Origin: an uncultured Chloroflexia bacterium
GTDB lineage: Bacteria; Chloroflexota; Limnocylindria; Limnocylindrales; CSP1-4
DNA length: 64,000 nucleotides
NCBI GenBank assembly: GCA_963835945.1
Contig: CAWIHR010000010.1
Location: 5,857-69,856, forward strand
Direction of reading: 5' to 3'
A program made the translations under genes and the position numbers. The notes beneath the pieces are model-generated. The model saw only the letters and a program-made list of their open reading frames with translations, made no database searches and was not told the DNA's origin. This document shows, one piece after another, positions 28,247 to 47,326 of this stretch (position 1 is its first letter; each line of letters opens with the position of its first letter).

Positions 28247-28642
28247 CTACTCGGTGGCCTTGCCATCGAAATGTTCAGGCGCGGCGTCGGCGTCTGCCTT
28301 CGTCCGGCGCACGACACCATCACGATGCTCGGGCGGGCCATAGAGCGTGTACAGCTTGAGCGGCGCGGAGCCGACGCTGCGCACGTTGTGGCGGGCGCCG
28401 GCAGGCACGATCATCGCGAAGTCGGCCGTCACGCGGTGCGTCGTGCCGTCGATGGTGATTTCGCCGTCGCCGGCCTCGACGCGGAAGAACTGGTCACGAT
28501 CCTCGTGCACCTCCGAGCCAATCTCCTCACCGGGCGCGAGGGTCATCAGCACGAGCTGGAGATGCTGACCGGTGTAGAGCACGCGGCGGAAGTCCGCGTT
28601 GCCCTCGGTGAGCCGCCCGATGTCGTCAACGAAGCCCTTCAT
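28247..28642 (-). CDS. Cupin-domain protein
   Basis: 131 aa. LMTLAPGEEIGSEVHEDRDQFFRVEAGDGEITIDG...IVPAGARHNVRSVG contains cupin motifs 1 and 2. Confidence 0.75.
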   Translation of the reverse strand: MKGFVDDIGRLTEGNADFRRVLYTGQHLQLVLMTLAPGEEIGSEVHEDRDQFFRVEAGDGEITIDGTTHRVTADFAMIVPAGARHNVRSVGSAPLKLYTLYGPPEHRDGVVRRTKADADAAPEHFDGKATE

Positions 28643-29385
28643 GGCTGTCCGCCGTCTCCTTCATCCGTGGACCCCCGGCGCGTCGTGCGGGAAGCGCCGG
28701 CGTGCCGTCGATTGTCACCAGTCGAGCCTACACGCGGCTCGCGGTCCGCCCCAGTGCCGGACCGCCCCTCCGCCGCCGAAGCTCGCTGGGAGTGCAGTAG
28801 AGATGCGCGTTGCGGAGCGGCCTGGCGCCTGCTCGTTACGCATCAGGTTCTGCGTTGGCGAGGCCGGGCAGGTGCGCGGCTAAGGGGTGGGGACTCCGGC
28901 CTGGCCTGACTGCAATCTTGCGATCTACTGGCGCCTCTGTCCGAGCCCTAGCCTGACGTCGGTGGCGGGCAGCAAGCGCCTGCCGAGTTGTAGTGCGGCA
29001 CCTTCTCGTCCACCTGACTACCACCCCAGGGCGAAGAGAGCCCGTGGACGGCGACCGGATCACGGCGGGCCCGGTGGCGCCAGCAGCCGGCGGGTCCGCT
29101 TTCGCACGATGGCCAAAGTGTCTCCGGACGCTGGCCCCCCTCAGGTGGCGGGCGAGGCCCACGTGACCGGCACGGGTGGTGTCGGCCCGCCGTGGCGGCT
29201 GCGCCAGGCAGTCCAGCCAGCCAGGAGCGGTCCACCGAGCCCGACCACGCTGACGACGGCCTCCGCCCACGGACCACGGGCTCCCTGCTGGGGGCTCCTG
29301 GCCGCCGCTCGCCCGGACGTACACTGCCCACCGAACGTGACGCCCGAACATCGAACGTCCGAGCTTAGGAAGGTGCCGCGCCGCG

Positions 29386-30240
29386 ATGCTCCTGCCCGAA
29401 GACGACCGCGTCATCGCCCCCGCGTCGGAGTACTACAACGCGGAACTCATCCGACGAGAGAACGAGACCGATGATCTTGCGTACTTCTGGGTGCGCCTCT
29501 GGGGGGACCCCGTCCCGTTCGAGCCCGGGCAGTACCTCACGCTCGGCGTGATCGCGGACGGCAGGCTCGTCCAGCGGCCGTACTCCGTGGCGTCGTCCCC
29601 GCGGGTCGCGGACGAGGGGTACGAGTTCTACGTGCGGCTCGTCCCGATCCTTCACTTCACCACGCTCCTGTGGCGGCTCCCGGTCGGCCACGGGATGCGG
29701 GTGATTGGCCCAAAGGGGCGCTTCATGCTAGAGCCCGACGACCGCCGGACGCAGATCTTCGTCTCGACCGGGACGGGGATCGCGCCGTTCATCTCGATAA
29801 TTCGCACGCAACTCCTAGACGGGAAGCTGCCGCGCACCGTCCTCGCGCACGGTGTCTCGCATGTGAAGGAGCTGGGCTTCCGGCGCGAGCTCGAGAGATA
29901 CGAGCGCGACGGACGGCCCATCACGTACGTCCCCACCATCTCGCGGCCGCAGGAGCCCGAGAACGCGGGCTGGGCCGGGAAGACAGGGCGGGTTGAGACG
30001 ATCCTCGACGATCTCTGCGACGACTGCAAAATCGAACCCGACCGGACCGTCGTGTACATCTGCGGGAACCCCGAGATGATCGTGAAGGCCGAGGCGATCC
30101 TCCTCGGCCACGGGCTGCCCGAGCCGCACATCAAGAAGGAGCTGTACTGGCCCAAGAGCAAGGAACCGAGGCTGCCGGTCGACGTCACCAACGGCGCGAA
30201 GGCCCGCGGCGGCGTGGCCGAACTCGCCTCGGAGGTCTGA
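29386..30240 (+). CDS. Ferredoxin-NADP+ reductase-type flavoprotein
   Basis: RPYSVASSP (FAD-binding RxYS motif), IFVSTGTGIAPFISI (NADP-binding GTGIAP) and VYICGNPEMI. Confidence 0.85.
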   Translation: MLLPEDDRVIAPASEYYNAELIRRENETDDLAYFWVRLWGDPVPFEPGQYLTLGVIADGRLVQRPYSVASSPRVADEGYEFYVRLVPILHFTTLLWRLPVGHGMRVIGPKGRFMLEPDDRRTQIFVSTGTGIAPFISIIRTQLLDGKLPRTVLAHGVSHVKELGFRRELERYERDGRPITYVPTISRPQEPENAGWAGKTGRVETILDDLCDDCKIEPDRTVVYICGNPEMIVKAEAILLGHGLPEPHIKKELYWPKSKEPRLPVDVTNGAKARGGVAELASEV

Positions 30241-32201: not shown

Positions 32202-32732
32202 CTAGGCGGGCAGGAGGACCGAGGTGATGACGTGGATGACGCCGTTGGTGGCCGGGATGTTGAAGAGCTTGTCGGCGATGTCGATGCGCGCGGTGGTGCC
32301 GGCGGTGGTGAAGAGGGTGCCGTTGTGGATGGCCCAGAGGGGCTGCCCCAGGAGGGTCTTCAGCGCGTTGATCTGGCCCCAGGCGGCGGGCAGGACGTCC
32401 TTGGCGTACTGGTCACCGGCCACCACGTGGTAGAGGAGGATCTTCGTGAGCGTGGCCTGCGGCAGCGCCGTGCAGACGTTGCTCTTGGTGAGGCCGAGCT
32501 TGGCGAAGGCGGCGTCGGTGGGGGCGAAGACGGTCAGCTGCTGGCCGCTCGTGAGGGCCTTGCCCACGGCCGGGTCAGCGCAGCCGACGGCGGCGAGGAG
32601 CGTCGTGAAGTTGCCGTTCGCCGTGGCGATCTGGACGATCGACTGGGTCGGCTGGGCCGCCGCCGCGAAGGTGGAGGGGACGATGGCGAGGACGAGCACG
32701 ACCCCGCCGAGCAGGGATGCGATGCGCTTCAC
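32202..32732 (-). CDS. Secreted fasciclin (FAS1) domain protein
   Basis: GTG start with AAGGAG upstream and a signal peptide (VKRIASLLGGVVLVLAIVPSTFAAAAQ). FAS1 motifs: IATANGNFTTLLAAV...LTVFAPTDAAFAKL...LLYHVV...NGVIHVITSVLLP. Confidence 0.85.
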   Translation of the reverse strand: MKRIASLLGGVVLVLAIVPSTFAAAAQPTQSIVQIATANGNFTTLLAAVGCADPAVGKALTSGQQLTVFAPTDAAFAKLGLTKSNVCTALPQATLTKILLYHVVAGDQYAKDVLPAAWGQINALKTLLGQPLWAIHNGTLFTTAGTTARIDIADKLFNIPATNGVIHVITSVLLPA

Positions 32733-33059: not shown

Positions 33060-33863
33060 TTACGGTCGCAGGGTGCCGAAGAAGACCTGCCAAGCCAGCA
33101 GCGACTTGGCCAGCAGGCTGAAGAGCATGTAGGCCCGCTCGCCGTAGAGGTAGTCGCTCCAGCGCCCTACCTTCCGGTACTGCAGCACCATGTTGACCGC
33201 GAAGACGTTGAAGGCGACGAAGAGCGAGACGAAGATTCCGATCACGAAGCCCGGGATGGGTGCCGAGCCAGGCTGCGTGGCCGAGACGAGGAGCGTCACG
33301 AAGATGACCACCCACGGCACGGCGCCGGCGATGCAGCCGAAGACATAGTGGAGCCACTGGGGCCGCTCGCGGCCCTCGTTGGCGATCTCCATGCTCCAGC
33401 CGAAGAGGATCATGGCCGCGTTCACGCCGAAGATCGCGATCAGCGTGCCCACCTCCTGGACACCCGCCAGCGCCGCGATGACGACGATCATCACGCTTGA
33501 GCTGAACGAGTACTCGATCCAGCGGATCGGGTTCTGGCCGCGCGCGAGGTGAGCCTCGTACCAGCGTCGCGCCGGGAACGCCATGGCGAAATGGGCCACG
33601 GCGCTCATGAGGAAGAAGAGAGCCACAGCCGGGCCGATGGGCAGGTCCCAGATGTGGCGCTGGGCGGTGACGAGATGGCGGGTCGTCTGGTCGAAGCGCA
33701 GGTAGGTGCTCACCACCGGCGACGTGACTACCGGGTTCTTCGCGAACGAGAGGGCCAGGATCGCCACACACTGGAGGAAGTGGAGGACCGCCAAGACGGC
33801 GTTCCAACGAAATAGGCCGCTGGATCGGCCGGCCGGGATGGTGGTGGCAGCGTGGGCGGACAT
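33060..33863 (-). CDS. Heliorhodopsin (267 aa)
   Basis: Collinear by eye with the prototype heliorhodopsin 48C12 (from memory). Segments are LAVLHFLQCVAILAL, MSAVAHFAM, NPIRWIEYSFSSSVMIVVIA (counter-ion Glu), IFGVNAAMILFGW, FGCIAGAVPWVVI, PGFVIGIFVSLFVAFN and YGERAYMLFSLLAKSLLAWQVFFGTL (Schiff-base Lys). GGAGG lies 5 nt upstream of ATG 33863. Confidence 0.9.
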   Translation of the reverse strand: MSAHAATTIPAGRSSGLFRWNAVLAVLHFLQCVAILALSFAKNPVVTSPVVSTYLRFDQTTRHLVTAQRHIWDLPIGPAVALFFLMSAVAHFAMAFPARRWYEAHLARGQNPIRWIEYSFSSSVMIVVIAALAGVQEVGTLIAIFGVNAAMILFGWSMEIANEGRERPQWLHYVFGCIAGAVPWVVIFVTLLVSATQPGSAPIPGFVIGIFVSLFVAFNVFAVNMVLQYRKVGRWSDYLYGERAYMLFSLLAKSLLAWQVFFGTLRP

Positions 33864-33919
33864 GCGACCTCCGATGAATGCGGATGAACTCGGGTGCTCG
33901 CCGAGCATACGCGGGGGAG

Positions 33920-34350: not shown

Positions 34351-35781
34351 ATGCGAGTCCTCGTCGTCGGCGCCAGCGGGTACATCGGCGGGCGCCTAGT
34401 ACCCCTGCTCCAGGCGCGCGGCCACGACCTGGTCCTCATGAGCCGCGACGCGGGGCCCTTGGCGGCGCGCTTCCCGGGCGCCCGCGTCGTGGCCGCCGAC
34501 CTGCTGGACGCGGCCACCCTCAAGCCGGCGCTCGAGGGGATCGAGGTCGCCTACTACTTGGCCCATTCGCTGGGAGGCGGTGAGCGGGGGTTCGCCGATC
34601 GCGATCGCCAGGCCGCCCGCAACTTCGCAGAGGCGGCTGCCCGCGCCTGTGTCGGCCGAATCGTCTACCTGGGCGGGCTGGGCGACGACGCGGCCGACCT
34701 CTCGCATCACCTGTCCAGTCGCCACGAGGTGGGCGCGGAGCTTGCCCGCCACGGCGTCCGGGTCGCCGAGTTTCGGGCCGCGGTCGTGATCGGCTCCGGG
34801 AGCGCCTCGTTCGAGATCCTGCGAAACCTCACGGAGCGACTGCCGGTGATGATCACGCCGCGCTGGGTCTCCACGCGCTGCCAGCCGATCGGGATCCGCG
34901 ACGTCTTGGCCTACCTGGTCGCGGCACTGGATCACCCCGAGGTGAGCGGGGTGGTCGAGATCGGCGGACCGGACGTACTCTCGTATGGCCAGATGATGCT
35001 GCGGTACGCGCACCTGCGCGGACTGCGGCGCCTGATGATCCCGGTGCCGGTACTCACGCCCCAGCTCAGCTCCTACTGGGTCAACCTGGTCTCACCGGTC
35101 CCGGCGAACATCGCCCGGCCCCTGATCGAAGGTCTGCGCAACGAGGTTGTCGTTCGCGACCCCGAACCGGCGCAGGCATTCGCGGTCACTCCTGCGACCT
35201 ACGACGAGGCGCTGGCTCTGGCGATCGCTCGATCCGGCGTTGGCGAGGAGGAGTCCACCTGGTTCGACGCACTGCGCACGCCCAACCGAGAGACGCTCGC
35301 CTCGATGGGGTCGCGGGAGGGGATGATCATCGACCGCCGGGTGCGCCGGGTGGCAGCCTCGCCTGAGCAGACATTTGCCGCCGTCGAGCGGGTCGGTGGT
35401 GCCACGGGCTGGCCCTATGCCAACCTCCTTTGGCGCGTTCGCGGACTCGGCGACCGCCTCGTCGGGGGCGTCGGCATGCGCCTGGGGCGTCGCGATCCGA
35501 ACCGGCTCCGGGTCGGCGATGCGCTCGACTTCTGGCGCGTGGAGGAGATCCGACGGCCTGCGCTGCTCCGCCTGCGAGCCGAGATGAAGGTTCCCGGGAA
35601 GGCGTGGCTCCAGTACGAAATCGTGCCCGTCGGCGCCGGCAGCCGGCTGATCCAGACGGCCTTCTTCGAACCAAAGGGAGTGCCCGGCCTCGCCTACTGG
35701 TACATGCTCTACCCGGCCCACGCCGTGATCTTCCGGGGCATGGTCAAGGTGCTCGCCGAACGAACTGCCGCTGGACCGTAG
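34351..35781 (+). CDS. NAD(P)-binding (atypical SDR/NmrA-like) protein fused to a DUF2867-like C-terminal domain
   Basis: MRVLVVGASGYIGGRLVPLLQARGHDLV (Rossmann GxxGxxG). The C-terminal half (GWPYANLLWRVRGLGDRLVGGVGMRLGRRDP...GDALDFWRVEEI...LLRLRAEMKVPGKAWLQYEI) is typical of DUF2867 as I recall it. It is divergent from the DoxX-like stub. Confidence 0.8.
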   Translation: MRVLVVGASGYIGGRLVPLLQARGHDLVLMSRDAGPLAARFPGARVVAADLLDAATLKPALEGIEVAYYLAHSLGGGERGFADRDRQAARNFAEAAARACVGRIVYLGGLGDDAADLSHHLSSRHEVGAELARHGVRVAEFRAAVVIGSGSASFEILRNLTERLPVMITPRWVSTRCQPIGIRDVLAYLVAALDHPEVSGVVEIGGPDVLSYGQMMLRYAHLRGLRRLMIPVPVLTPQLSSYWVNLVSPVPANIARPLIEGLRNEVVVRDPEPAQAFAVTPATYDEALALAIARSGVGEEESTWFDALRTPNRETLASMGSREGMIIDRRVRRVAASPEQTFAAVERVGGATGWPYANLLWRVRGLGDRLVGGVGMRLGRRDPNRLRVGDALDFWRVEEIRRPALLRLRAEMKVPGKAWLQYEIVPVGAGSRLIQTAFFEPKGVPGLAYWYMLYPAHAVIFRGMVKVLAERTAAGP

Positions 35782-35901: not shown

Positions 35902-36456
35902 TCAGGCCGCGAGCGCGGCCATCGGGCGGACCCGGTCGGCAAGTTCGCCCATCAGTCCCGCGATCTCGGCGCGAACACGCGGGTCGGCCAAGGTGAGCTC
36001 CTCGTCGAACGCCTCCGCCGCGAAGGGGACCGCGACCACGTGATCGAGCACGTCCGAGCGCGTGCGGCGCAGGGTCCGCACAACCGACTCGATGCCGCCC
36101 TGCGCCCCGCTTCCGCCGGGGGACGCCCCCATGACCAGGACCGGCTTCCCGGCCAGGAGTCGGACCGGACCGCGCGACGCCCAGTCCAGCGCGTTCTTGA
36201 GGACGCCGCTCGTGCCGTCGTTGTACTCGGGCGTGGCGATGAGCAGGGCGTCCGCCGCGGCAACCTCCCGCCGCAACTCCTCGACAATGGCCGGATAGCC
36301 GGCTGCCTCGAGGTCTCCGTCGTAGAAGGGGAGCGCGCCGAGCGCGTCGAAGACTTGCGTCTCCACGTCGGTCGGGGCTAAGTCCAGAGCGGCCCGCAGG
36401 AGCGCCCGGTTGTAGGAGGCCCGGCGGAGGCTCCCCGCGAGGCCCAGGATCTTCAT
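35902..36456 (-). CDS. NADPH-dependent FMN reductase
   Basis: MKILGLAGSLRRASYNRALLRAA...ADALLIATPEYNDGTSGVLKNALDWASR is the canonical NADPH-FMN reductase motif. Confidence 0.85.
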   Translation of the reverse strand: MKILGLAGSLRRASYNRALLRAALDLAPTDVETQVFDALGALPFYDGDLEAAGYPAIVEELRREVAAADALLIATPEYNDGTSGVLKNALDWASRGPVRLLAGKPVLVMGASPGGSGAQGGIESVVRTLRRTRSDVLDHVVAVPFAAEAFDEELTLADPRVRAEIAGLMGELADRVRPMAALAA

Positions 36457-36768: not shown

Positions 36769-37815
36769 TCAGCGCTCCGGGGCTGGATCGGGCACACCGG
36801 ACAGCTCGACCACGCTGTCCCAGACGCGTCGCCGATCGGCGGCCGAGAGGCGGGTCGCAGGGATCCGGTCAAAGGGCCGCGGCCGCCGATCGAGAAAGAG
36901 CTTCCCGCTAACCGTGCCGACAGCCCCGTCGGTGGCCAGCCAGACGATCGTGTCGGCGCCCTCCGCAGGCGTGCGCAGGAGCGGATGCATCCGTCGATAG
37001 AAACCGGGCAGCGACGCTGCGAGCCCCGGAGTGTCGGCCCAGCCGGGGTGCATCGCGTTGAAGGTCGGGCCCTTGCCGGCCACCCGCCGGGCCCACTCGC
37101 GGACCAGCGCCACCTGGGCGCGCTTCGCTCGGGCATAGGCGCGCGCTCCCGAGAACGGCTCGCCGCTCCACTGCAGGTCATCCAGGTGCAGCCTCTGGGT
37201 GTACATGCCCCCCGAGGTCACGGCGATCACGCGCGACCCTTGGGTTTGCCGGAGTAGCGGCAGCAACCCTGTGATCAGAACGAAGGGCCCGACGACGAGG
37301 ATCGCCAGCGTGGCCTCGATCCCGTCGGGCCCCACGATGCGTTCCGGGTAGATCGCCCCGGCGTTGTCCACCACCACGTCGAGTCGCGGCTCGGTCTCGA
37401 GGATTCGGGCCACCGCGGTCCGCACGGAGGCGAGAGATCCCAGGTCGGCGACGACGATCGGGAAGCGGTCCCCGCCGTGCGCTGCAGCGAGCGCATCGCG
37501 CACCGCGGCGAGGCGCTCCTCGCTCCGGCCGACGAGCAGCACCCTGGCGCCCAGCGCCGCCAGGGCTTCGGTCGCCGCCTTCCCCAGGCCCGATGTCGGG
37601 CCCGTGACCAGCACGGTCTTGCCCGCGAGCGTGTCGGCCGGCGGGGGAGCCCAGCCGAAGAGCCGGCGACGCAGCGCGATCCCCGTGTGGGGGAAGCTGC
37701 CGATGATCGATACTTCGAGCACGTCGTCTGCGAGGGTCTTAGGATCCACGGGCACTCCTCCGGATCGCGCCGGCGACCGCACGGACGTGACGGTCACGTG
37801 TTCATCGCCCATCAT
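36769..37815 (-). CDS. Short-chain dehydrogenase/reductase (DHRS12-like), divergent from the SRPBCC gene
   Basis: KTVLVTGPTSGLGKA (TGxxxGxG), VVVDNAG, YARAKRAQV (YxxxK). The ATG at 37815 is only 27 bp from the divergent SRPBCC start, so the true start may lie further in. Confidence 0.8.
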   Translation of the reverse strand: MMGDEHVTVTSVRSPARSGGVPVDPKTLADDVLEVSIIGSFPHTGIALRRRLFGWAPPPADTLAGKTVLVTGPTSGLGKAATEALAALGARVLLVGRSEERLAAVRDALAAAHGGDRFPIVVADLGSLASVRTAVARILETEPRLDVVVDNAGAIYPERIVGPDGIEATLAILVVGPFVLITGLLPLLRQTQGSRVIAVTSGGMYTQRLHLDDLQWSGEPFSGARAYARAKRAQVALVREWARRVAGKGPTFNAMHPGWADTPGLAASLPGFYRRMHPLLRTPAEGADTIVWLATDGAVGTVSGKLFLDRRPRPFDRIPATRLSAADRRRVWDSVVELSGVPDPAPER

Positions 37816-37842
37816 GATGACAACTCACGCGGAGGGCCACCG

Positions 37843-38286
37843 ATGACCAGGCTGCACGAACAGGTTGAGACGCCGCTTGCTCCCGGGGCGGCCTTCGCGT
37901 TCGTGGCCGACTTCGCGAACTCGAGCATCTGGGATCCCGGCACGGCGACCTCTGAGCGACTCGACCCGGGCCCGATCGGCGTGGGCACCCGATACCGGCT
38001 GGGGGTCCGGCTCAGCGGACGCGTCGTCCCGATGGAGTACCGGATATCGGTGTTCGAGCCGACCACCCGCGTCGTGCTCGTGGGCACGGGCTCCGGCGTG
38101 TCGGCAGTCGACGAGATCCGCTTCGAGCCCGCCGGAACGGGCACGCGGGTCGACTACACGGCCGACATCCGCCTGGGCGGCTGGATGCGGCTCGTTCAGC
38201 CGTTCCTCGGACGTGCCTTCGAGAAGCTCGCACGGAACGCCGCCGAGGGGATGCAGCGCGAGTTGGACCGGCAAGCTCGCGGATAG
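37843..38286 (+). CDS. SRPBCC (polyketide cyclase/dehydrase-like) family protein
   Basis: 147 aa, with GGAGGG 6 nt upstream. The sequence VETPLAPGAAFAFVADFANSSIWDPGTATSERL...YRLGVRLSGRVVPMEYRISVFEP...VDYTADIRLGGWMRLVQPFL has the usual SRPBCC layout. Confidence 0.7.
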   Translation: MTRLHEQVETPLAPGAAFAFVADFANSSIWDPGTATSERLDPGPIGVGTRYRLGVRLSGRVVPMEYRISVFEPTTRVVLVGTGSGVSAVDEIRFEPAGTGTRVDYTADIRLGGWMRLVQPFLGRAFEKLARNAAEGMQRELDRQARG

Positions 38287-38334
38287 GACGGTGCGCGCAG
38301 CAGCGGTTCGAAGCGACCAGCGGGGGTGCCATCC

Positions 38335-39606
38335 ATGAGAGTCGCGGTGGTCGGAGCAGGGGTCAGCGGCCTGACCGCCGCCTTTTACCTGAACCGGGAG
38401 CATCAGGTCCGCCTGTTCGAGCGCGACTCGGACGTCGGCGGGCACGTCAAGACCGTCCCCGTCGAGACGCCCACCGGGCGCATCCCTGTCGACACCGGGT
38501 TCATCGTGTACAACGAGACGACGTACCCGGTCTTCGTGCATCTCCTCAACGAGCTCGGAGTGGAGACGCAGCCCACCGAGATGTCGCTGAGCTCGACGTG
38601 CCACTCGTGCGATCTCGAGTTCAGCTTCAGGGGTGCCGGCGGCGTCTTCGCCCAACGCTCCGCACTGCTGCGGCCGTCGCACTGGCTGATGCTCGCCGAC
38701 GTCCTGCGCTTCTATCGCGACGCTCGTCGCAGGCTCGAGGGCGGCGCCCCCACGGACGCGACGCTAGGCGAGTATCTCGACGACCGGCGCTTCGGCCGGG
38801 ACTTCCGCCGCCACTTCCTCATCCCCCTGACGGCGGCCGTATGGTCCACCGGCCCGGACAAGATCCTCGACTATCCGGTCGACTACCTGCTGCACTTCCT
38901 CGACAACCACGGCCTGATCGGCTATGGGAAGACCCTGCAGTGGCGCGTGATCCGCGGCGGGTCGATGGTGTACGTCGATCGGATCGTGGCGTCGCTGCCC
39001 TCTGATGCCGTGCGCGCCGGGAGTCCGGTCACCGCCGTCACGCGGGACGCGCAGGGCGTCACCATCCAGACCGAGAACGGGTACACCGAGCGCTTCGACG
39101 CGGTCGTCCTGGCGACCCACGCCGACAACGCGCTGGCGCTGCTCCGGGACGCGGACGAGGCCGAGCGAGCCGCCCTCGGGTCGATTGCCTACTCGCGCAA
39201 CCAGGTCGTGCTGCACACCGACCGGGCCGTGCTGCCGAAGCTCCGGCGGGCCTGGGCCTCGTGGAACGTGGACCAGCCGGACTGCCGGAAGCCGGGCGAG
39301 GCGCTCACCATGACCTACTACATGAACCGCCTGCAGTCGCTCGGCGGTCCCGTTGCGTACTGCGTCTCCCTGAACTCGGGCAACCGGGTGCGGCCCGAGA
39401 AGGTCATTGTCGAGCGCGAGATGAGCCATCCCCGCTACACCTTCCGGACGCTCGCCGGCCAGCACGCGATCGGTGCGCTGCAGGGTCGCCGGAACACCTA
39501 CTATGCCGGGGCGCATCTCGGGTACGGCTTCCACGAGGACGGCTGCCGCTCGGGCTTCGAGGCGGCCGCCCGCATCCGTGCCGACGCGCGAGAGCGGGTT
39601 ACATGA
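38335..39606 (+). CDS. FAD/NAD-binding amine-oxidase-type oxidoreductase (COG2907-like; UfaD-like candidate)
   Basis: [37 protein letters not shown] is the dinucleotide-binding fold. The C-terminus is [14 protein letters not shown]. Its stop overlaps the next start (ATGA). Confidence 0.85.
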
Positions 39607-40343
39607 GGTCGCACCTGCTCGAAGGGAAGGTGCGACATCGGCGCGCCAGGCCCTTCGTCTACGAGCTCGAGCACGCCGTCTACTACTTCGCCCTCGATCT
39701 CGACGAGCTTGACGTCGTGCCCAGCGCGCTCCATCTTGTCAGCCGCAACCGGGCCAACGTGGTCACGTTCCGAGACGGCGACCACCTCGATCCGCCGGCC
39801 ACGGACGTCCGCGCCGCCGTCATGGGCCACCTGCGCGACGAGGGCTTCGATCCCCAGGGCTGGCACATCACCCTCGTCACGAACCTGCGTGTCTTCGGCT
39901 ACGTCTTCAATCCGGCGAGCTTCTACCTGTGCCGTGACGGCACGGGGACACTCCAGGTGGTCCTGATCGACGTGCACAACACGTTCGGCGAGCGGCACCT
40001 CTACGCGCTGCGCCGGCCGGAGGACCGGTCTGACTTCGTCGCCTCCACGGACAAGGCGTTCTACGTCTCGCCGTTCATTGACATGGAGGGCCGCTACACG
40101 GTCCGCGTCCGGGACGAACCCGCGCGCCTCCGCATCACCATCAACGAGGAGCAGGACGACGCGCTCCTCCTCCACGCGAGCCTCGACGTCAGGCGCCGGC
40201 CACTGACCGATCGCTCGGTCGCGCGCATGCTCGTTCGTCACCCCTTCATGACCCAGCGAACGATCGGCTTTATCCACTGGCATGCCCTACGCCTGTGGCT
40301 CCGGGGTGCGAAGTTTCACCGCCATGGAGCCCCGGCGCGATGA
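39603..40343 (+). CDS. DUF1365-family protein (UfaO-like candidate)
   Basis: [36 protein letters not shown]...[17 protein letters not shown]...VHNTFGERH matches the DUF1365 signature as I remember it. ATGA overlaps occur at both ends. Confidence 0.8.
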
Positions 40344-41581
40344 CCTCCCGGACCCTCTCCCCTCGCCTGCCCGCGCTGACCGACTCACTCCTCGCTGCGA
40401 CAGCCTGGCGCGTCGGCGTCGCCGCTGCCCGGCGCGTGCAGGTCGGATCGCTGACGATCATCCTGCCCGACGGCACACGCCACATGTTCGGCGACAGGGC
40501 GTCGGAGCTCCGGGGCGAGATCCACGTCCACGACCGCCAGGCGCTCGTGCGGATGCTGCTCGGCGGCGAGACCGGTGGTGGCGAAGCCTACATGGACGGG
40601 CTCTGGTCAAGCCCAGACCTGGCCGGGCTCCTGCGCTGGGCGGCCCTGAACCGTGAGGCGCTGGCCCTCTCGGCCGGCTGGTGGCGCGCTCCCGCCCAGC
40701 TCAGCCGCACGCTCGGCCATCGGCGCCGGCGCAACACGCGCACGGGGAGCCGGCGCAACATTGCCGCCCACTACGACCTGGGGAACGACTTCTACCGGCT
40801 CTTCCTGGACGAGACGATGACCTACTCGTGCGCCGTGTTCGCGACGCCCGACCAGTCGCTGGCGGACGCCCAGCGCAACAAGTACCGCAGCATGGCCGAG
40901 GGGGCCGGGCTCACACGGGGCCAGCACGTCCTCGAGATCGGCTCGGGCTGGGGCGGCTTCGCCCTGTATGCGGCCGGCGAGCTCGGCTGCCGCGTGACGT
41001 CCATCACGATCTCGAAGGAACAGTACGCCCTGGCCCGTGAGCGGGTCACGGCCGCCGGCCTCGACGACCTCGTGGACATCCAGCTGCGCGATTACCGGGA
41101 GATTCGCGGGACGTACGACGCGATCGTCTCGATCGAGATGCTGGAGGCGGTCGGAGCGGAGTACTACGCGACGTTCTTCGAGGTCTGCGACGCGGCGCTC
41201 ATTCCCGGCGGACGGATGAGCCTGCAGTCGATCACGTTCCCTGATGCTGCCTACGAGGCGCAACGTCGGGGCGCCAACTGGGTCCAGACCTACATCTTCC
41301 CGGGAGGGCTCTGCCCGTCGCTCGCCGTCATCGAGCGGGCGACCCGAGACACGCGGCTCCTCATCCGCAGCGTGGACGACATTGCCGCGAACTACGTGCG
41401 GACGCTGCGGGAGTGGCGCACGCAGTTCATGAGCCGGCTGGACGAGGTCCGAGCCATGGGCTTCGACGATCGGTTCGTGCGCATGTGGGAGTTCTACCTG
41501 GCCCTGAGCGAAGCCGGCTTCGCGACGGGGATTAGCCAGGACCTGCAGATCGTGCTCGAGAAACGGCGCGGCATCGGCTAA
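40340..41581 (+). CDS. Cyclopropane-fatty-acyl-phospholipid-synthase-like SAM-dependent methyltransferase
   Basis: NIAAHYDLGNDFYRLFLDETMTYSCAVF...AQRNKY...HVLEIGSGWGGFALYAA...IVSIEMLEAVG...IFPGG is the full CFA-synthase/mycolic-acid-methyltransferase pattern. Confidence 0.9.
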   Translation: MTSRTLSPRLPALTDSLLAATAWRVGVAAARRVQVGSLTIILPDGTRHMFGDRASELRGEIHVHDRQALVRMLLGGETGGGEAYMDGLWSSPDLAGLLRWAALNREALALSAGWWRAPAQLSRTLGHRRRRNTRTGSRRNIAAHYDLGNDFYRLFLDETMTYSCAVFATPDQSLADAQRNKYRSMAEGAGLTRGQHVLEIGSGWGGFALYAAGELGCRVTSITISKEQYALARERVTAAGLDDLVDIQLRDYREIRGTYDAIVSIEMLEAVGAEYYATFFEVCDAALIPGGRMSLQSITFPDAAYEAQRRGANWVQTYIFPGGLCPSLAVIERATRDTRLLIRSVDDIAANYVRTLREWRTQFMSRLDEVRAMGFDDRFVRMWEFYLALSEAGFATGISQDLQIVLEKRRGIG

Positions 41582-41900: not shown

Positions 41901-42383
41901 TTACACCGTCTGGACGGGTGCCTCCGCTGCCGCCTCGGCCTCTAAGGATGGGAGGATCGCGTGCTCCTCCTGCTCGAGGTGGGAGCCAATGAGCGCGTGC
42001 AACCCGTAGAGGTGGGCCCGCAGGTCGACCAGCTGGCGGTGGCTGGGCTCCCGTCGCACGGCCAGCCAGTCCGCCTCGAGGCGCTCCACGGCCTGGCGGA
42101 TCTGCCCGTGCTGGAGTCGCAGGACCCGAGTGGCCAACGGCGTGGCGGCCAGGCGGTCGATCTCGGGGAAGCAGAAGTTGTCCTCCCAGTCGAGATGCGG
42201 GAGGAGGGTCTTCTCGATGGTGTCGAGCAGGCTGCGCAGGGCGTTGGCGAGATCCTGGGCCGCGAGGTTGCCAGCCATCTCGGCGGTGGTCTCGATGCGC
42301 GCCACGACGTGCTCGATCTCGCGGTGCTCGCGGTCCAGGATGCGGCGCTCGATCGCCACCCCATGACCCGCCGCAATGGGCAT
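41901..42383 (-). CDS. Hemerythrin (HHE cation-binding) domain protein
   Basis: Only the last 160 aa of track ORF 41901-43316 are used. Contains ILDREHREIEHVVARIE, LLPHLDWEDNFCFPEID and LIGSHLEQEEHAILP (His/Glu ligand pattern). GGGGAGG lies upstream of ATG 42383. Confidence 0.7.
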   Translation of the reverse strand: MPIAAGHGVAIERRILDREHREIEHVVARIETTAEMAGNLAAQDLANALRSLLDTIEKTLLPHLDWEDNFCFPEIDRLAATPLATRVLRLQHGQIRQAVERLEADWLAVRREPSHRQLVDLRAHLYGLHALIGSHLEQEEHAILPSLEAEAAAEAPVQTV

Positions 42384-42680
42384 GCTCGCCTCCCCGGGAC
42401 GCTGCCGCTCGTTCGGGTGTGAGTCTCCCCGGCCACAGGTCCCCCGTGCCAGTGCCCTCCGGCATCCTTTCGACCTTCCGATGGACGGGCCGCAGAACTG
42501 GCCGGACCCAACTTCAAACACGAGGGCACGCGGCCGGTCTGACGGCGACCACGCAATGGTCCCCAGCCAGCCATCAGGCATGGAGTCGGGTGCGACCGTC
42601 GAGTGTCCGCGGATCCGTGCAGGGCTTGGGAGGCCCGACCCCGCGCAGGAGGCACCGAGCGCGAGGTGTGAGCCGCGTCT

Positions 42681-42720
42681 GACAGGCACAGTACACACGT
42701 GACAGGCACAGTACACACGG
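42681..42720. repeat. Tandem 20-bp direct repeat (2 copies) in a divergent intergenic region
   Basis: GACAGGCACAGTACACACGT GACAGGCACAGTACACACGG, with 19 of 20 positions identical. It lies between the hemerythrin start (42383, minus) and the PPOX start (42936, plus). Confidence 0.9.
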
Positions 42721-42935
42721 GCGACCGGCGAGGCGGCGATCGAGTCACTTGGCAGATGCCCTTCACTAAGGAGCATGCCCGCGGAGGCGGTGCGAGTCCC
42801 CGTCGACCACGCGCCCCACCGGGTCCAGCACGCTTGACTGCGGCTATTGTTCTTGCGCGGGCACCGCTGGTCGGCTAGCGTGGCTAGACCGACCATCTGG
42901 CCCGGCTCCACCCTTGCGACAGCCTCAGGAGCACC

Positions 42936-43352
42936 ATGAGCGTCTTCAGCGACCTCGAACTCGAGTACCTCGCTGGCCAGCGCCTGGGACGTCTGGCCAC
43001 CGTCGGGTCTGACGGCGCACCTCACGTCGTGCCGGTCTCCTTCGCCTACAACGGCGAGACCGACACGATCGACATCGGCGGCCATGCACCGGCAGTCACG
43101 AAGAAGTGGCGCGACATCGGCCGAGAGCCGCGGGTCGCCTTCGTCGTCGACGACGTGCTGCCGCCATGGCGGCCGCGCATGGTCGAGATCCGGGGACGGG
43201 CCAGCCTGCTCTTGGCGGGCGGGGTGTGGCTCGGCCCGGGGTTCGCTGACGAGTTCATCCGTATCACTCCGATCCGCATCGTGAGCTTCGGTCTCGACGG
43301 CACCCGCACGTCCCACGCGCGGAACGTGGGTTCCGCCGCGGATGACGCGTGA
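42936..43352 (+). CDS. PPOX-class (pyridoxamine 5'-phosphate oxidase-like) probable F420-dependent oxidoreductase
   Basis: LEYLAGQRLGRLATVGSDGAPHVVPVSFAYNGETDTIDIGGH...RVAFVVDD. AGGAG lies 5 nt upstream. Confidence 0.8.
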   Translation: MSVFSDLELEYLAGQRLGRLATVGSDGAPHVVPVSFAYNGETDTIDIGGHAPAVTKKWRDIGREPRVAFVVDDVLPPWRPRMVEIRGRASLLLAGGVWLGPGFADEFIRITPIRIVSFGLDGTRTSHARNVGSAADDA

Positions 43353-43810
43353 CGCTCGAGATACCGCCGGCGGGGACGCGCGGGGCTCGGATGCCCGGTG
43401 GGCCGCTCGTCCGAACCTTCGGGGGAGTGTATGCCGCGCTCTACCGTCTCCTAGGTGGCCGCCTCGTCGGCACGCGGATGCTCCTGCTCAGTACGGTGGG
43501 CGCCCGTTCGGGTCGGCCGCGCACGGCCCCGGTCGCGAGCTTCCCCGACGGCGCGGGCCGTTGGCTCGTGGCCGGCTCGGCCGGCGGCGCGGCCCGTCAT
43601 CCGGCCTGGTTCATCAACCTGGCCCACCACCCCGACCAGGTCTGGGTCGAGGTCGGCCCCCAAAGATTTCTGGTCACGCCCGAGCTCCTGCGCGGGGAGG
43701 AGCGCGCGGTCGCCTGGCGCCAGATCACCGCCCGCTCGCCTGGTTTCGCAGGCTACGCGCGCAGGACCGATCGCGAGATCCCGGTCGTGCGGCTCACCCG
43801 CGCGGAGTAG
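43349..43810 (+). CDS. Deazaflavin(F420H2)-dependent nitroreductase family (Ddn-like) protein
   Basis: MLLLSTVGARSGRPRTAPVASFPDGAGRWLVAGSAGGAARHPAWFINLAHHPDQVWVEVG is the family signature. The GTGA overlap with the PPOX gene suggests coupling. The start could instead be the Met at 43391. Confidence 0.8.
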   Translation: MTLEIPPAGTRGARMPGGPLVRTFGGVYAALYRLLGGRLVGTRMLLLSTVGARSGRPRTAPVASFPDGAGRWLVAGSAGGAARHPAWFINLAHHPDQVWVEVGPQRFLVTPELLRGEERAVAWRQITARSPGFAGYARRTDREIPVVRLTRAE

Positions 43811-43882
43811 CCCAGGGCGTCCGGCCCCACCAAGAGCGGACCATCGTGATGGGGCGGCGGCCGGCGACCGCACGGGGGTAGC

Positions 43883-45952
43883 ATGTCGGCCACGATGCTC
43901 CGGGCCACACGTCGCCAGTCCTTGCTTCTCGGGTTCGTCTGGGCGGTGCTGCTGCTGTTAGCGGCCGCCCCGGCGGCGGCGCAATCGGTGCCAAAGCTGC
44001 AGGGTCAGATCACCGACGAGACCGGGTCCCTAGGGAGCGGCACGGCGCAGGTCCAGTCGGCGCTCGGCAGCCTGGCGTCCCAGCACAACGTCCAGCTCGA
44101 CGTCGTGTTCGTCGCGACCAGCGGCAGCGAGGCAGCGCCGCAGCTCGCCCAGGACACGTACACGCAGAACAGCCTGGGCGGCAACGCCATGGTGCTGCTG
44201 GTAGCTGTCAACGACCGCCAGTACGGCTACTACCAAGACGGCGCCCTTGGCTCGCTCACAGCCGGGGACGTCGACTCGCTCCTCAGCAGTCAGCTCGCGC
44301 CGCGCTTCGCAGCCGGCGACTATGCCGCCGGCGTCGTCGCCTTCGCGAACGGGCTTGGGCAGGCACTCGCCGGCGGGGGCCAGGGTGGGACCGTCCCGGT
44401 TGCCACGCCCGTGTCGGGCCAGGCGCCGGGCCCCGCCCCGGCGAGCTCGAACAACGGCGTCCTGGCGCTGCTGGTCGGGCTGATTGTCGTGTTGCTCGGC
44501 GCCGCGGTGATCGTCACGTGGTTCCGGCGCTGGCGGGTCGCACACCTGGCGACCGAGGAGCGTGATCGACACACCGGGCAGCTCGCGCGCCAGGCAAACC
44601 AGCTGCTAATCCAGGCGGACGACGCGGTGCGCGACGCGGGCCAGGACCTCGGGTTCGCCGAGGCAGAGTTCAGCGCCGAGGAAGTGGAGCCGTTTCGCAC
44701 GGCCCTGTCACAGGCACAGACAGAACTGAAGGCCGCGTTCGTGGTGCGCCAGAAACTCGACGACGCGACCCCGGAGGACCCGCCCACGCGCGAGGCGATG
44801 CTCACTGACATCGTCACGCGTGCGCAGCGGGTGAGCAGCCTGATCGGCGAGCAGCAGCAACGGTTCCAGGAGCTACGCGATTTGGAGCGACGCGCGCCCG
44901 AGATTCTGGCTGGCTTGCCGGCCCAGGCCGCGGCACTCCAGGCCAGACTGCCAGCTGCCGAGACCACGATGCAGGGTCTGCAGGCCTACGCGGGGTCGAG
45001 CTGGGCTCCGGTGAAAGGGAACCTCGAAGAAACGCGGAAGCAAATCGACTTCGCCACTGCTGCCGCGGCGCACGGCTCAGCGGCGCTCACGGCCACGCCC
45101 CCGGATCCGCACACAGCCCGCGATGCTGCAGCCGCCGGGCAGGCCGCCCTGGCCGGAGGCGCCACGCTGCTTGACGCGATCGACCACCTGTCAGCTTCCA
45201 TCAGCGATGCCCGTGCGCACGTCGATCCGGAGATCAGCGCGGCCGAGACCGACATTGCAGCAGCACGCCAGGCGCTGCAGCACCGCGCTGGCGACCCCTC
45301 TCTCGAGTCCCGGCTCGCGGACGCCGACGCCCAGCTGGCCGCGGCGAAGGCAGCCATCGCCGCATCGGCGCCAGACCCCCTCGCTGCCCTGAAGAGTGCA
45401 CAGGCCGCCCATGCCGGGGCCGACCAGGTGCTCGCCAGTGAGCGTGCGGCCGAGGACCAGCTGGCGCGCCAGAAGACGGCGCTGCAGACGGCGCTCGTCT
45501 CCGCACAGGCGAGCGTGACCCACGCCAACGACTACATCGAGAGCCGGCGCAACGGTGTGGGACGGGAGGCCCGCACGCGTCTGGCCGAGGCGCAGCGTCA
45601 CCTCGAGCAGGCCCAGGCGGCGGCGGATGCCGGGTCGGCGCTGCCGGAGGCGCAGCAGGCGCAGCAATTGGCCGACGAAGCGTACCGGATCGCCAGCTCA
45701 GAGTTCGATGATTGGGACGGTCGCGGGGGACCGGGTGGCCAGCGCGGCATGAACCCGACCGGCGCGCTCATGGGCGGGCTCATCCTAGGTGGCCTGCTCG
45801 GCGGCGGCCTTCGGGGAGGCGGTTGGGGGGGCTCGCCCTGGGGCGGTCGGGGCGGCCTCGGCGGCTTGGGTGGCGGGGGAGGGTTCGGCGGCTTCGGCGG
45901 GGGCGGGGGCTTCGGCGGTGGCCGAGGCTTCGGTGGCGGTGGGAGATGGTGA
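43883..45952 (+). CDS. TPM-domain membrane protein with long coiled-coil region and Gly-rich tail
   Basis: Signal/TM helix, then a TPM-like domain (ITDETGSLGSGTAQVQSALGSLASQHNVQLDVVFV...AMVLLVAVNDRQYGYYQDG). A TM helix (VLALLVGLIVVLLGAAVIV) follows, then about 400 aa of Ala/Gln/Glu-rich helix and a GGFGG-type tail. Confidence 0.75.
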   Translation: MSATMLRATRRQSLLLGFVWAVLLLLAAAPAAAQSVPKLQGQITDETGSLGSGTAQVQSALGSLASQHNVQLDVVFVATSGSEAAPQLAQDTYTQNSLGGNAMVLLVAVNDRQYGYYQDGALGSLTAGDVDSLLSSQLAPRFAAGDYAAGVVAFANGLGQALAGGGQGGTVPVATPVSGQAPGPAPASSNNGVLALLVGLIVVLLGAAVIVTWFRRWRVAHLATEERDRHTGQLARQANQLLIQADDAVRDAGQDLGFAEAEFSAEEVEPFRTALSQAQTELKAAFVVRQKLDDATPEDPPTREAMLTDIVTRAQRVSSLIGEQQQRFQELRDLERRAPEILAGLPAQAAALQARLPAAETTMQGLQAYAGSSWAPVKGNLEETRKQIDFATAAAAHGSAALTATPPDPHTARDAAAAGQAALAGGATLLDAIDHLSASISDARAHVDPEISAAETDIAAARQALQHRAGDPSLESRLADADAQLAAAKAAIAASAPDPLAALKSAQAAHAGADQVLASERAAEDQLARQKTALQTALVSAQASVTHANDYIESRRNGVGREARTRLAEAQRHLEQAQAAADAGSALPEAQQAQQLADEAYRIASSEFDDWDGRGGPGGQRGMNPTGALMGGLILGGLLGGGLRGGGWGGSPWGGRGGLGGLGGGGGFGGFGGGGGFGGGRGFGGGGRW

Positions 45953-46020
45953 GCTGGGTTGTGCTGACGCGCCGTCGCGCTGAGATGCGTTCACGCGGAC
46001 GATAGGAAGGAGAACCACGC

Positions 46021-46731
46021 ATGGCACAGACATCGATCCTTGGCCGCATCGGCCAGCTCGTCCGGGCGAACGTGAACGGGCTCATCGACAGCGCCGAGGA
46101 CCCGGAGAAGATGCTCGACCAGCTAATCCGGGACTTCACGAACAACATGGCCGAGGCCGAGGATGCGGTCGCCCAGACCGTCGGGAACCTGCGCCTCATG
46201 GAGGACGACGCGACTGAGGCCAAGGCCGCAGTTACGGAGTGGGGCAGCAAGGCAGCTGCGGCGTCGCACAAGGCCGACGAGCTCCGGGCGGCCGGCAACG
46301 CGGCCGAGGCGGATCGGTTCGACAAGCTCGCCAAGGTCGCGCTGCGACGCCAGCTCGGATTCGAGGACCAGGTCAAGACGTTCGAGACGCAGATCGCCCA
46401 GCAGACTGAGCTCGTCGACAAGCTCAAGGATGGCCTCACGAAGCTTCGTGCGAAGCGCGAGGAGCTCGTGCAGAAGCGCGACGAGCTGGTCGGGCGGGCG
46501 AAGATGGCCCAGGCGCAGGTGCAGGTCCAGCAGACGCTGCGCGACGCCTCGGTCATGGACCCCACGAGCGAGCTCAACCGGTTCGAGGAGCGGATCAGGC
46601 GCCAGGAGGCCATGGCCCGCGGGCAAGCCGAAGTGGCCGCTTCATCAGTGGAGGAGCAGTTCGCCTCGCTCGACAGCGACTCGGACGAACTGGAAGTTGA
46701 CGCGAGGCTGAAGGCGCTCAAGGGCAGCTGA
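46021..46731 (+). CDS. pspA: PspA/IM30 (phage shock protein A / Vipp1) family protein
   Basis: MAQTSILGRIGQLVRANVNGLIDSAEDPEKMLDQLIRDFTNNMAEAEDAVAQ is the canonical PspA N-terminus. The protein is coiled coil throughout. GGAAGGAG lies upstream. Confidence 0.9.
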   Translation: MAQTSILGRIGQLVRANVNGLIDSAEDPEKMLDQLIRDFTNNMAEAEDAVAQTVGNLRLMEDDATEAKAAVTEWGSKAAAASHKADELRAAGNAAEADRFDKLAKVALRRQLGFEDQVKTFETQIAQQTELVDKLKDGLTKLRAKREELVQKRDELVGRAKMAQAQVQVQQTLRDASVMDPTSELNRFEERIRRQEAMARGQAEVAASSVEEQFASLDSDSDELEVDARLKALKGS

Positions 46732-46951
46732 GAGCTGCGTCTTACTGGTTGCTGACACTCCCAGCGTAGAGAGGGCTCTCGCACCGTTCTCAGCCCAGGT
46801 CGCGCCTCACCCGCATCCAGGGTCCGGTGTCACGGACGTATCTGGACGAGGGCACGCCAACGGCCGAAGTCACGTTCGTTCGAGTCCGCCCGCGAGTCAA
46901 CCACGGTGGGCACTCCGACTCGACCGCACCGCGAGGGACTATCCTCCGCTC

Positions 46952-47326
46952 GTGAGCATCACGAAGGTCCAGCTGTTCTCCGTCCCCGTCACCGACCAAG
47001 ATCGGGCCCGCGACTTCTACGTCAGCGTCCTGGGCATGGAGCTCGTGCGCGAGATGCAGATGAGTCCCAGGATGCGGTGGGTCCAGGTCCGTCCGGTCGG
47101 GGCGGCGACGTCGATCACCCTCGTCACGTGGTTCGAGTCGATGCCCCCGGGGTCGCTCACGGGGCTCGTCCTCGAGACTGACGACCTCGACGGCGATGCA
47201 GCCCGCCTGCGCGAGCGAGGGGTGGTCATGGACGACGCCATCGCGTCCGCGCCGTGGGGCCGGTCGATTGGGTTCGCCGATACCGACGGCAACCGACTCA
47301 TCCTCCAGTCGACGACCGCCCGCTGA
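46952..47326 (+). CDS. VOC/glyoxalase-family protein
   Basis: 124 aa. VQLFSVPVTDQDRARDFYVSVLGMELV...GFADTDGNRLIL. Confidence 0.8.
   Translation: MSITKVQLFSVPVTDQDRARDFYVSVLGMELVREMQMSPRMRWVQVRPVGAATSITLVTWFESMPPGSLTGLVLETDDLDGDAARLRERGVVMDDAIASAPWGRSIGFADTDGNRLILQSTTAR

Follow-up and report, generated by a model that had tools for sequence, protein, structure and literature searches.

Gene content of the locus

The DNA considered here is a 64,000-nt stretch from an uncultured Chloroflexia bacterium (assembly GCA_963835945.1, contig CAWIHR010000010.1, positions 5,857 to 69,856), called the window throughout, with a G+C content of about 70%. Its open reading frame (ORF) listing, together with Pfam and NCBIfam scans, identifies a set of five adjoining genes whose core families are those of furan fatty acid (FuFA) synthesis: a short-chain dehydrogenase/reductase (SDR) and, divergent from it, genes for an SRPBCC protein, a UfaD-like FAD oxidoreductase, a UfaO-like DUF1365 protein and a CMAS-family methylase (Table 1). 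These five genes are referred to as the block. The gene for a heliorhodopsin (HeR) lies close by, its start 2.86 kb from the stop of the SDR gene. Within the operon, start and stop codons overlap as ATGA at 39603-39606 (UfaD-like/DUF1365) and at 40340-40343 (DUF1365/methylase). An earlier note on this DNA, made without database searches, had listed the same genes and families, described the genes as translationally coupled and put HeR about 3 kb from the block; every family is present in the Pfam and NCBIfam scans, both overlaps can be read in the sequence, and the distance agrees.

The gap of 27 bp that the note gave between SDR and SRPBCC has to be revised, as it assumed that the SDR begins at the most upstream ATG (37815). 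A more probable start is the GTG at 37749, because this codon follows a ribosome-binding site (GGAGGAG) and opens a conserved N-terminus of the form V/M-D-P-...-L-x-D (as in the related loci L152, L014 and L160); the intergenic region would then be 93 bp, and the protein would have 326 aa, equal to the length of its relatives. The SDR belongs to the classical SDRs and to a group that resembles retinol dehydrogenase (RDH) and light-dependent protochlorophyllide oxidoreductase (LPOR): its best NCBIfam match is PRK06197, and its best PDB matches are 3rd5 and protochlorophyllide oxidoreductases. LkcE is the best PDB match of the UfaD-like protein (1.8e-38), and a PDB search with the DUF1365 protein returned no solved homologue.

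Table 1. Features of the block and its surroundings in the window
Feature	Position	Strand	Evidence
Fasciclin-domain protein	32202..32732 (ORF extends to 32807)	-	Pfam Fasciclin 3.3e-19
Heliorhodopsin (HeR)	33060..33908	-	Pfam 1e-92, NCBIfam HeR 2.8e-93
NmrA-like NAD(P)H-binding protein with DUF2867, divergent from HeR	34351..35781	+	DUF2867 3.5e-33, NAD_binding_10 7e-15
NADPH-dependent FMN reductase, downstream of SDR on the same strand	35902..36456 (ORF extends to 36576)	-	FMN_red 2.3e-36
SDR, classical, RDH/LPOR-like group	36769..37749	-	adh_short 1.3e-26 on ORF 36769-37815; probable start GTG 37749
Divergent control region, "class B"	37750..37842		Sequence read directly
SRPBCC protein (START/Bet v1-like lipid-binding fold), first gene of the operon	37843..38286	+	Polyketide_cyc2 1.8e-17
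UfaD-like FAD-dependent amine-oxidase-family desaturase	38335..39606	+	Amino_oxidase 1.8e-26, NAD_binding_8 4.5e-13
UfaO-like DUF1365 protein	39603..40343	+	DUF1365 4.3e-75
CMAS-family methyltransferase dependent on S-adenosylmethionine (SAM), block-associated subtype, candidate UfaM	40340..41581	+	CMAS 3.2e-85
Hemerythrin-domain gene, convergent; marks the downstream end of the operon	41901..42383	-	Hemerythrin 8.6e-12, C-terminal part of ORF 41901-43316; codon-usage gene call

The flanks on both sides (25375-30240 and 41901-47326) are full of small redox and stress genes: glyoxalase-like, flavodoxin_5, dienelactone hydrolase, cupin, FNR-type oxidoreductase, hemerythrin, PNPOx-like, F420H2-dependent quinone reductase, TPM-domain protein and PspA. 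Two transposase genes, one IS30-like (HTH_38 and rve) and one of the IS110 family, stand side by side at 49608-51941, 8 kb downstream of the block.

Relation to known furan fatty acid genes

FuFAs protect membranes against singlet oxygen. Their synthesis has been assigned to three proteins: UfaD (RSP1091), an FAD enzyme like amine oxidases and phytoene desaturases; UfaO (RSP1090), a DUF1365 protein that inserts oxygen derived from O2; and UfaM, a SAM methylase like cyclopropane fatty acid (CFA) synthase (PMC7380195). In Rhodobacter sphaeroides the genes RSP1087-1089 are dispensable for FuFA, and in Rhodopseudomonas palustris ufaD-ufaO-ufaM are necessary and sufficient for FuFA synthesis (PMC7380195). 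The FuFA genes are core members of the sigma-E/ChrR regulon (PMC6852236). The mapping given in the earlier note, of a methylase to UfaM, an FAD desaturase to UfaD and an O2-using protein to UfaO, is therefore right, with UfaO as the DUF1365 protein (PMC7380195).

In the window, an FAD-binding enzyme of the amine-oxidase type is adjoined by a DUF1365 gene, as ufaD is by ufaO. The closest likeness is to R. palustris RPA2571-RPA2570-RPA2569 (ufaD-ufaO-ufaM; Lemke et al. 2020, PMC7380195), in which the same three families are contiguous in the same order; R. palustris belongs to the Alphaproteobacteria, whereas the version in Chloroflexota adds an SRPBCC gene at the start of the operon and a divergent RDH-like SDR. 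In R. sphaeroides RSP1091-1087 (sigma-E/ChrR, ECF11) the UfaD-like and DUF1365 genes are likewise adjacent at the head of the operon, and the setting is photo-oxidative stress, as proposed for the window, but ufaM (RSP2144) is unlinked there and the methylase of the window lies within the operon. For sequence comparison, stand-ins were taken from plasmids in PLSDB as genes holding the same positions in blocks of Brucella anthropi, Rhodococcus erythropolis and Qingshengfaniella. Over their full length, the three coupled proteins of the window are 31-45% identical to these counterparts: the UfaD-like protein shows 36-43% identity, also over full length, to those of B. anthropi, Rhodococcus and Qingshengfaniella, and the DUF1365 protein 31-39% to DUF1365 proteins of proteobacterial and actinobacterial blocks. 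The block proteins of Alphaproteobacteria other than R. palustris are 31-43% identical to those of the window. As to their context, the block of B. anthropi adjoins sigma-E/ChrR and a photolyase gene, and that of Qingshengfaniella adjoins sigma-E/ChrR, an SDR and a fasciclin gene.

A reading of the block as an actinobacterial tuberculostearic acid system (BfaA/BfaB type) was tried and set aside: the FAD enzyme of the window is of the amine-oxidase type and is coupled to DUF1365. The BfaA/BfaB system has an FAD_binding_4 reductase and is not known to use a DUF1365 protein.

The methylase as a block-linked subtype

The methylase is in all likelihood not an ordinary cyclopropane synthase, because the histidine that is a bicarbonate ligand in those enzymes (H266 of Escherichia coli Cfa) is replaced by Gln and because its scores lie below the cut-offs of the NCBIfam Cfa equivalogs (321 against 600, and 260 against 400). 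It does share the CMAS fold family with E. coli Cfa, with the solved structures 6bqc, 7qos and 5z9o (E 2.5e-55 to 7qos) and with mycobacterial CmaA1/2, and it retains the SAM-binding motifs as well as E239, I268 and Y317. It departs from the canonical bicarbonate set (C139, E239, H266, I268, Y317) at H266, and it has Ala in place of H240, the His after the catalytic Glu; all five solved cyclopropane synthases used as alignment reference have His at the H266 position. A further difference from canonical Cfa is that the gene of this subtype is always coupled to those of DUF1365 and the FAD enzyme. The earlier note had named orthology with ordinary cyclopropane synthase clusters as the finding that would undo its reading, and the missing H266 hallmark speaks against that outcome.

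Both substitutions (H266Q and H240A) occur in 70 of 70 block methylases from Limnocylindria and in the block methylases of Rhodococcus and B. anthropi. More broadly, they were seen in all examined methylases encoded directly after DUF1365, from Chloroflexota, Actinomycetota and Alphaproteobacteria (including L167 7711-9000 and L168 7792-9024). The pair may thus be a simple sequence marker that divides block-linked methylases from true cyclopropane synthases. The gene holds the position of RPA2569, and this position together with the H266Q signature, compared with the block-positional stand-ins rather than with a validated UfaM, makes it a candidate orthologue of UfaM.

Conservation of the block in relatives

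Species-representative genomes were scanned with the DUF1365 protein of the window, which gave 80 block-centred loci with 57-77% identity, nearly all from metagenome-assembled genomes titled Chloroflexia, Chloroflexota or Candidatus Limnocylindrales/Limnocylindria. Together with the G+C content, this makes Candidatus Limnocylindria (Chloroflexota) the most likely lineage of the window, and not Actinobacteria. ORFs in these relatives were called by codon usage, neighbours were clustered by BLASTP and their identities were checked with Pfam. The core is well kept: the SDR is present in 63 loci, SRPBCC in 68, UfaD in 74, UfaO in 80 and the methylase in 77, the shortfalls being due to truncated contigs.

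Several accessory genes recur at lower frequency. NmrA-DUF2867 is found in 12 of the 80 block loci, in eight of them directly after the methylase gene (L071, L078, L079 and L081-L085, at about 12.0-13.5 kb, mostly followed by a convergent photolyase gene and an SRPBCC-NAD(P)-binding fusion), and it adjoins HeR in the window, L037 and L135. Photolyase genes occur in seven of the block loci. Fasciclin genes occur in nine of them and in 6-7 of 80 loci centred on HeR (described below); in Qingshengfaniella, a Rhodobacterales plasmid with ufaD-ufaO has next to them a fasciclin gene (L166 3800-4267; product 39% identical to that of the window) between an SDR and chrR-rpoE, which suggests that fasciclin is part of one stress neighbourhood shared by several phyla.

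Regulators and promoter classes

The earlier note's statement that ECF (extracytoplasmic function) sigma and ChrR genes are absent agrees with tblastn searches of the whole 64-kb window, which found no homologue of five ECF sigma factors (two of them proteobacterial sigma-E), two ChrR proteins, a ZAS anti-sigma factor, two B12-binding proteins, LitR or photolyase. Relatives are better endowed. A cluster of B12-binding proteins stands beside the block in 17 loci, 11 of them with a full-length LitR/CarH (MerR and B12-binding domains) and six with the B12-binding domain only. Eleven of the 80 loci encode, beside the block, an ECF sigma factor with 32-35% identity to proteobacterial sigma-E.

The upstream regions fall into three types. 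In class A, a GACCC-N16-CGTGCGAA motif followed by the inverted repeat GGGTCCCCGAGCCGGACCC occurs once per locus, about 72 nt before SRPBCC, in about 18 loci (L020, L026, L031, L036, L037, L042, L048, L051, L054, L056-L058, L063, L065, L069, L072, L074 and L075); its 11-nt core is unspecific, with 330 places in DNA of 70% G+C, and it is the longer pattern that is specific. Class A was likened to TGATCC-N16-CGTA upstream of the ufaD beside sigma-E/ChrR in Qingshengfaniella (L166, at about 5665-5693). It was found neither in the window nor in the HeR-centred loci. Loci with an adjacent LitR have TTGACAA-type repeats over a sigma-70-like promoter. The third type, class B, comprises the window and seven relatives (L014, L016, L017, L018, L043, L047 and L052), in all of which CCATCATGAT is kept about 28 nt upstream of the SRPBCC start.

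The class B region of the window has two further elements. One is the 10-nt palindrome CATCATGATG (37810-37819), which is like a -10 box and contains the ATG taken in the earlier note as the SDR start. The other is a perfect 7-1-7 inverted repeat, ACGTGAC-G-GTCACGT, at about 37785-37799; the sequence of this repeat differs among relatives, and all have a GC-rich inverted repeat at that position. No ECF-type motif and no TTGACA repeat is present in 37750-37842. With respect to sigma-E/ChrR (ECF11) control, the window has neither rpoE-chrR nearby nor the ECF-like class A motif, and with respect to LitR/CarH control, it has neither a LitR or B12-binding homologue nor TTGACAA repeats, while 11 relatives have an adjacent LitR. 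As far as can be judged from its sequence, the copy in the window has a class B promoter without a recognisable LitR or ECF site, and no regulator is encoded nearby.

These regulators recall two known systems. The resemblance to the sigma-E/ChrR system of R. sphaeroides is that some relatives of the window carry the sigma-E-like ECF sigma factor together with the class A promoter-like motif. The partners differ: R. sphaeroides pairs sigma-E with ChrR, whereas in Limnocylindria the ECF sigma factor is paired with ZAS and/or a B12-binding-domain protein, none of them being present in the window and ChrR being absent from the loci of this lineage. The ECF sigma gene is accompanied by a stand-alone B12-binding_2 and B12-binding protein (227-237 aa, no MerR domain) in L037 (12016-14023), L117 (8349-9841) and L123 (about 3286-4047); the pair is also seen in L048, L050, L055, L066 and L067, in some loci with a zf-HC2 anti-sigma gene in between, and it adjoins the block and/or is divergent from HeR. 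This pair may provide a cobalamin-based light input to the ECF sigma factor in the place of ChrR.

The second system is the LitR (PplR/PmlR) cluster of Pseudomonas putida and P. mendocina, in which LitR and photolyase stand beside an SDR, an FAD oxidoreductase and ufaM (PMC9758184). Under the control of LitR, light raises the expression of this phrB-SDR-FAD oxidoreductase-ufaM cluster 25-33-fold (PMC9758184). The likeness of Limnocylindria lies in LitR beside the block in 11 of the 80 loci and photolyase in seven; the difference is that Pseudomonas uses a class II LitR with a LOV protein, whereas the Limnocylindria proteins have B12-binding domains (class I-like), and the window has neither LitR nor photolyase. 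Because a LitR switches on such a cluster by light in Pseudomonas and sigma-E/ChrR controls the FuFA genes, the block is, by analogy, a known kind of light- and singlet-oxygen-stress cluster whose regulators have been swapped between lineages. In L002 and L006 (6026-8062, minus strand) the SDR and a full LitR form one ORF of 678 aa without an intervening stop, with an internal LitR start at MYTIKQAA; it may be a true fusion or a pair of genes connected by a spacer in the same frame.

Heliorhodopsin and its linkage to the block

The HeR of the window is apparently functional: its Schiff-base Lys (SLLAKSLLAWQVF) and counter-ion Glu (RWIEYS) align with those of TaHeR (6is6). A sigma-70-like site lies upstream of the gene at 34136-34109 on the minus strand.

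Linkage of HeR and the block was examined from both sides. HeR lies within 10 kb of the block in four of the 80 block loci (L007, L014, L026 and L037), for which random placement gives an expectation of at most 0.26-0.36 even with one HeR per genome (P about 1e-4 to 5e-4). In the reverse direction, a set of 80 metagenome loci centred on HeRs 71-90% identical to that of the window contains block genes in nine loci (four lineages after 95% dereplication) against 0.13 expected. The co-localisation that the earlier note proposed to check is thus above chance in this lineage. The proximity of HeR is not a matter of chance at the lineage level, and the linkage is real but sporadic.

About eight different layouts bring the two together. 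In the window, the order is HeR, NmrA-DUF2867, FMN reductase, SDR and then the block; in L014/L160 it is HeR, DUF4397, SDR and then the block. L117 has the block, a B12-binding protein, an ECF sigma factor and then HeR, and in L037 the block, ECF, ZAS, B12-binding protein, HeR and NmrA-DUF2867 are all co-directional. L007 runs from fasciclin through HeR and LitR to SDR-block, and in L026 HeR lies 4 kb downstream of the block. In L148, L151-L155 and L164, methylase-UfaO-UfaD-SRPBCC is divergent from a HeR-SDR operon across a control region of 106 bp that is richer in A+T; the HeR stop and SDR start are 1 nt apart (TAA-c-GTG) in L152-L154 and overlap in L164, and L151 has a LitR gene after the SDR. 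HeR is accompanied by LitR or ECF/B12 modules in L007, L037, L117, L123 and L151, and it occurs with all three promoter classes.

An SDR is also the commonest neighbour of HeR among these relatives (17 of 81 loci). These SDRs include a paralogue with 34% identity that is found where the block is absent; the block SDR and this paralogue are both RDH/LPOR-like. In L152-L154 and L164 the arrangement of HeR and SDR is that of co-transcribed genes; in the window the two are 2.9 kb apart with a gene on the opposite strand in between. FMN reductase homologues adjoin HeR in L127, L135, L149 and L150. Other recurrent neighbours are a PAS-HisKA-HATPase-receiver hybrid kinase in nine loci and an ABC-transporter ATPase in ten (e.g., L113 3338-4927 and L095 1645-2571), in agreement with published surveys. 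A survey of HeR operons distinguished ten neighbour groups, among them SDR family oxidoreductase, MerR, photolyase, alpha/beta-hydrolase and DUF2177 (Cho et al. 2024, PMC11109279); of these, DUF2177 and photolyase are also found in the extended proteobacterial ufa/ChrR neighbourhood. Neither DUF1365 nor cyclopropane/CFA genes are mentioned in the text or supplementary operon tables of that survey (PMC11109279), no paper in the library searched names heliorhodopsin along with cyclopropane, and none of those listed joins it with DUF1365 or furan fatty acids, so that the link of HeR to a FuFA-type block appears to be undescribed in the literature searched.

Interpretation

It is reasonably likely that SRPBCC-ufaD-ufaO-methylase (37843-41581) with the divergent SDR is the Candidatus Limnocylindria version of a widespread cluster for acyl-chain modification that is induced by light and singlet oxygen, that its core makes FuFA, and that HeR is a co-regulated member of the same light-stress island. 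The CMAS-family methylase would place a methyl group from SAM on a cis-monounsaturated acyl chain of a phospholipid, giving a methyl-branched trans-olefin instead of a cyclopropane; the UfaD-like enzyme would desaturate this olefin to a conjugated methyl-diene, and the UfaO-like protein would insert oxygen derived from O2 and close the furan ring. The furan product would scavenge singlet oxygen and radicals in the membrane. As accessory proteins, SRPBCC could act as a lipid carrier and the SDR in carbonyl/alcohol redox reactions on lipid or retinoid substrates. HeR, NmrA-DUF2867, FMN reductase, fasciclin, photolyase, LitR and the ECF sigma factor with its B12 partner keep reassembling round the block, in what would be a light-stress gene island. 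The best reading of HeR is that of a co-regulated member of this island, not of a transcriptional sensor that replaces sigma-E/ChrR, and its target may be a neighbouring enzyme, for instance the SDR.

Several points weigh against this interpretation. Orthology with the Ufa proteins is argued from family, gene order and the gene numbering of the literature, and the predicted chemistry and product, which build on observed families, gene order, coupling, conservation and neighbourhood statistics, concern an uncultured class. HeR in the window is by its arrangement a transcription unit of its own, with two genes between it and the SDR, one of them on the opposite strand. An operator common to the upstream regions of HeR and the block was sought in the window and rejected: the 13-nt core of the inverted repeat (CGTGACNGTCACG, 37786-37798) and CATCATGATG each occur exactly only once there, so they give no evidence of a site common to both, and the two regions have no motif in common. 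The enrichment was tested against a model in which genes are placed at random, and the metagenome contigs are less than fully independent of one another. Among the HeRs nearest in sequence (84-90% identity), the majority, including those of L114 and L103 with flanks of 10 kb, lack a neighbouring block. As to the product, it is conceivable, if somewhat unlikely, that the block modifies acyl chains to a non-furan end product, such as a methyl-branched, conjugated or cyclopropane/cyclopropene lipid. Only two FuFA systems have been characterised, both proteobacterial; no solved structure is related to DUF1365, the family of UfaO; the same block is found in actinobacteria, for which the literature search gave no FuFA report, and an Agrococcus FuFA producer has been reported without a homologue (PMC9323897). 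A furan is nevertheless favoured by the presence of all three FuFA families in R. palustris order and translationally coupled, by a methylase that lacks the His ligand of the five aligned cyclopropane synthases, and by the regulators of light/singlet-oxygen type that flank the block in relatives.

The role of HeR allows more readings than the product does. The earlier note held that light sensing through HeR might replace or feed the control of the block, and HeR as a light sensor that switches on block transcription in place of sigma-E/ChrR would fit the lack of ECF sigma, ChrR and LitR genes in the window, the enrichment of HeR near the block, and the slow, sensor-like photocycles of HeRs and their link to oxidative-stress genes (PMC8612252). 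This is nonetheless very improbable. HeR is not known to bind DNA or to signal through a kinase; that it is found alongside LitR or ECF/B12 in relatives (the five loci listed above) argues against its replacing those regulators; and where it heads a HeR-SDR operon whose transcription starts in the divergent promoter region of the block itself, as in L152, it would be an output of that region, not an input. Its occurrence with all three promoter classes also counts against a switch, and the window covers only 64 kb of a source contig of at least 234 kb, so regulators may lie elsewhere. What stands of the earlier note is its family mapping, a methylase that lacks a Cfa hallmark, and the co-localisation of HeR; HeR as a transcriptional control is not supported. 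A post-translational role, in which light-dependent binding tunes a neighbouring enzyme, most plausibly the RDH/LPOR-like SDR, would make HeR and SDR a functional pair to which the fatty-acid genes are linked only through the SDR. Its appeal lies in the frequency of the SDR beside HeR, also without the block, in the 1-nt separation in L152-L154 and the overlap in L164, in the SDR family oxidoreductase group of the operon survey (PMC11109279), and in HeR-enzyme binding reported for glutamine synthetase, photolyase and an ABC transporter (PMC9529153, PMC9769723). This account is nevertheless unlikely: the interaction is proposed by analogy, the two genes are not co-transcribed in the window, the SDR is kept with the block in 63 of the 80 loci regardless of HeR, and the same facts are compatible with co-regulation. 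It is more doubtful still that the adjacency in this window is incidental, the outcome of a variable, redox-rich region near insertion sequences with no functional tie. It is true that the pairing is missing from the closest block relatives (L016, L018, L047 and L052) and from the majority of the closest HeR relatives, that the redox genes in the flanks (flavodoxin, cupin, glyoxalases, F420H2 quinone reductase) are unrelated, that there are IS30- and IS110-type genes at 49.6-51.9 kb, and that HeR is a separate transcription unit; yet the enrichment is 10- to 70-fold over random in both directions, and the intervening NmrA-DUF2867 and FMN reductase genes recur near both HeR and the block. Co-regulated membership of HeR in the island is the reading retained here.

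Significance

FuFA genes have been characterised only in two alphaproteobacteria, and a coupled ufaD-ufaO-methylase operon in an uncultured class of soil and freshwater Chloroflexota would extend the pathway to monoderm-type bacteria. The block itself is, in its families and gene order, a Chloroflexota representative of the known FuFA-type light/singlet-oxygen cluster, with a predicted chemistry. The association of HeR with the block and with the SDR was not found in the literature searched and is a lead on HeR function. The repeated placement of HeR by the block, independent of architecture and at times as a HeR-SDR operon on the same promoter region, amounts to a concrete, testable hypothesis on its physiological role; in addition, it brings a number of published HeR neighbour groups (SDR, MerR, photolyase, DUF2177) together in a single neighbourhood of light-stress genes. 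A bolder and rather speculative idea, which one would not expect to hold in full, is that the HeR of Chloroflexota is a dedicated component of photo-oxidative membrane protection, co-expressed from the promoter region of the FuFA operon and, in light, binding and modulating the membrane-proximal RDH-like SDR or another block enzyme. If true, light perception would be coupled directly to acyl-chain remodelling, and HeR would have a physiological role in lipid protection.

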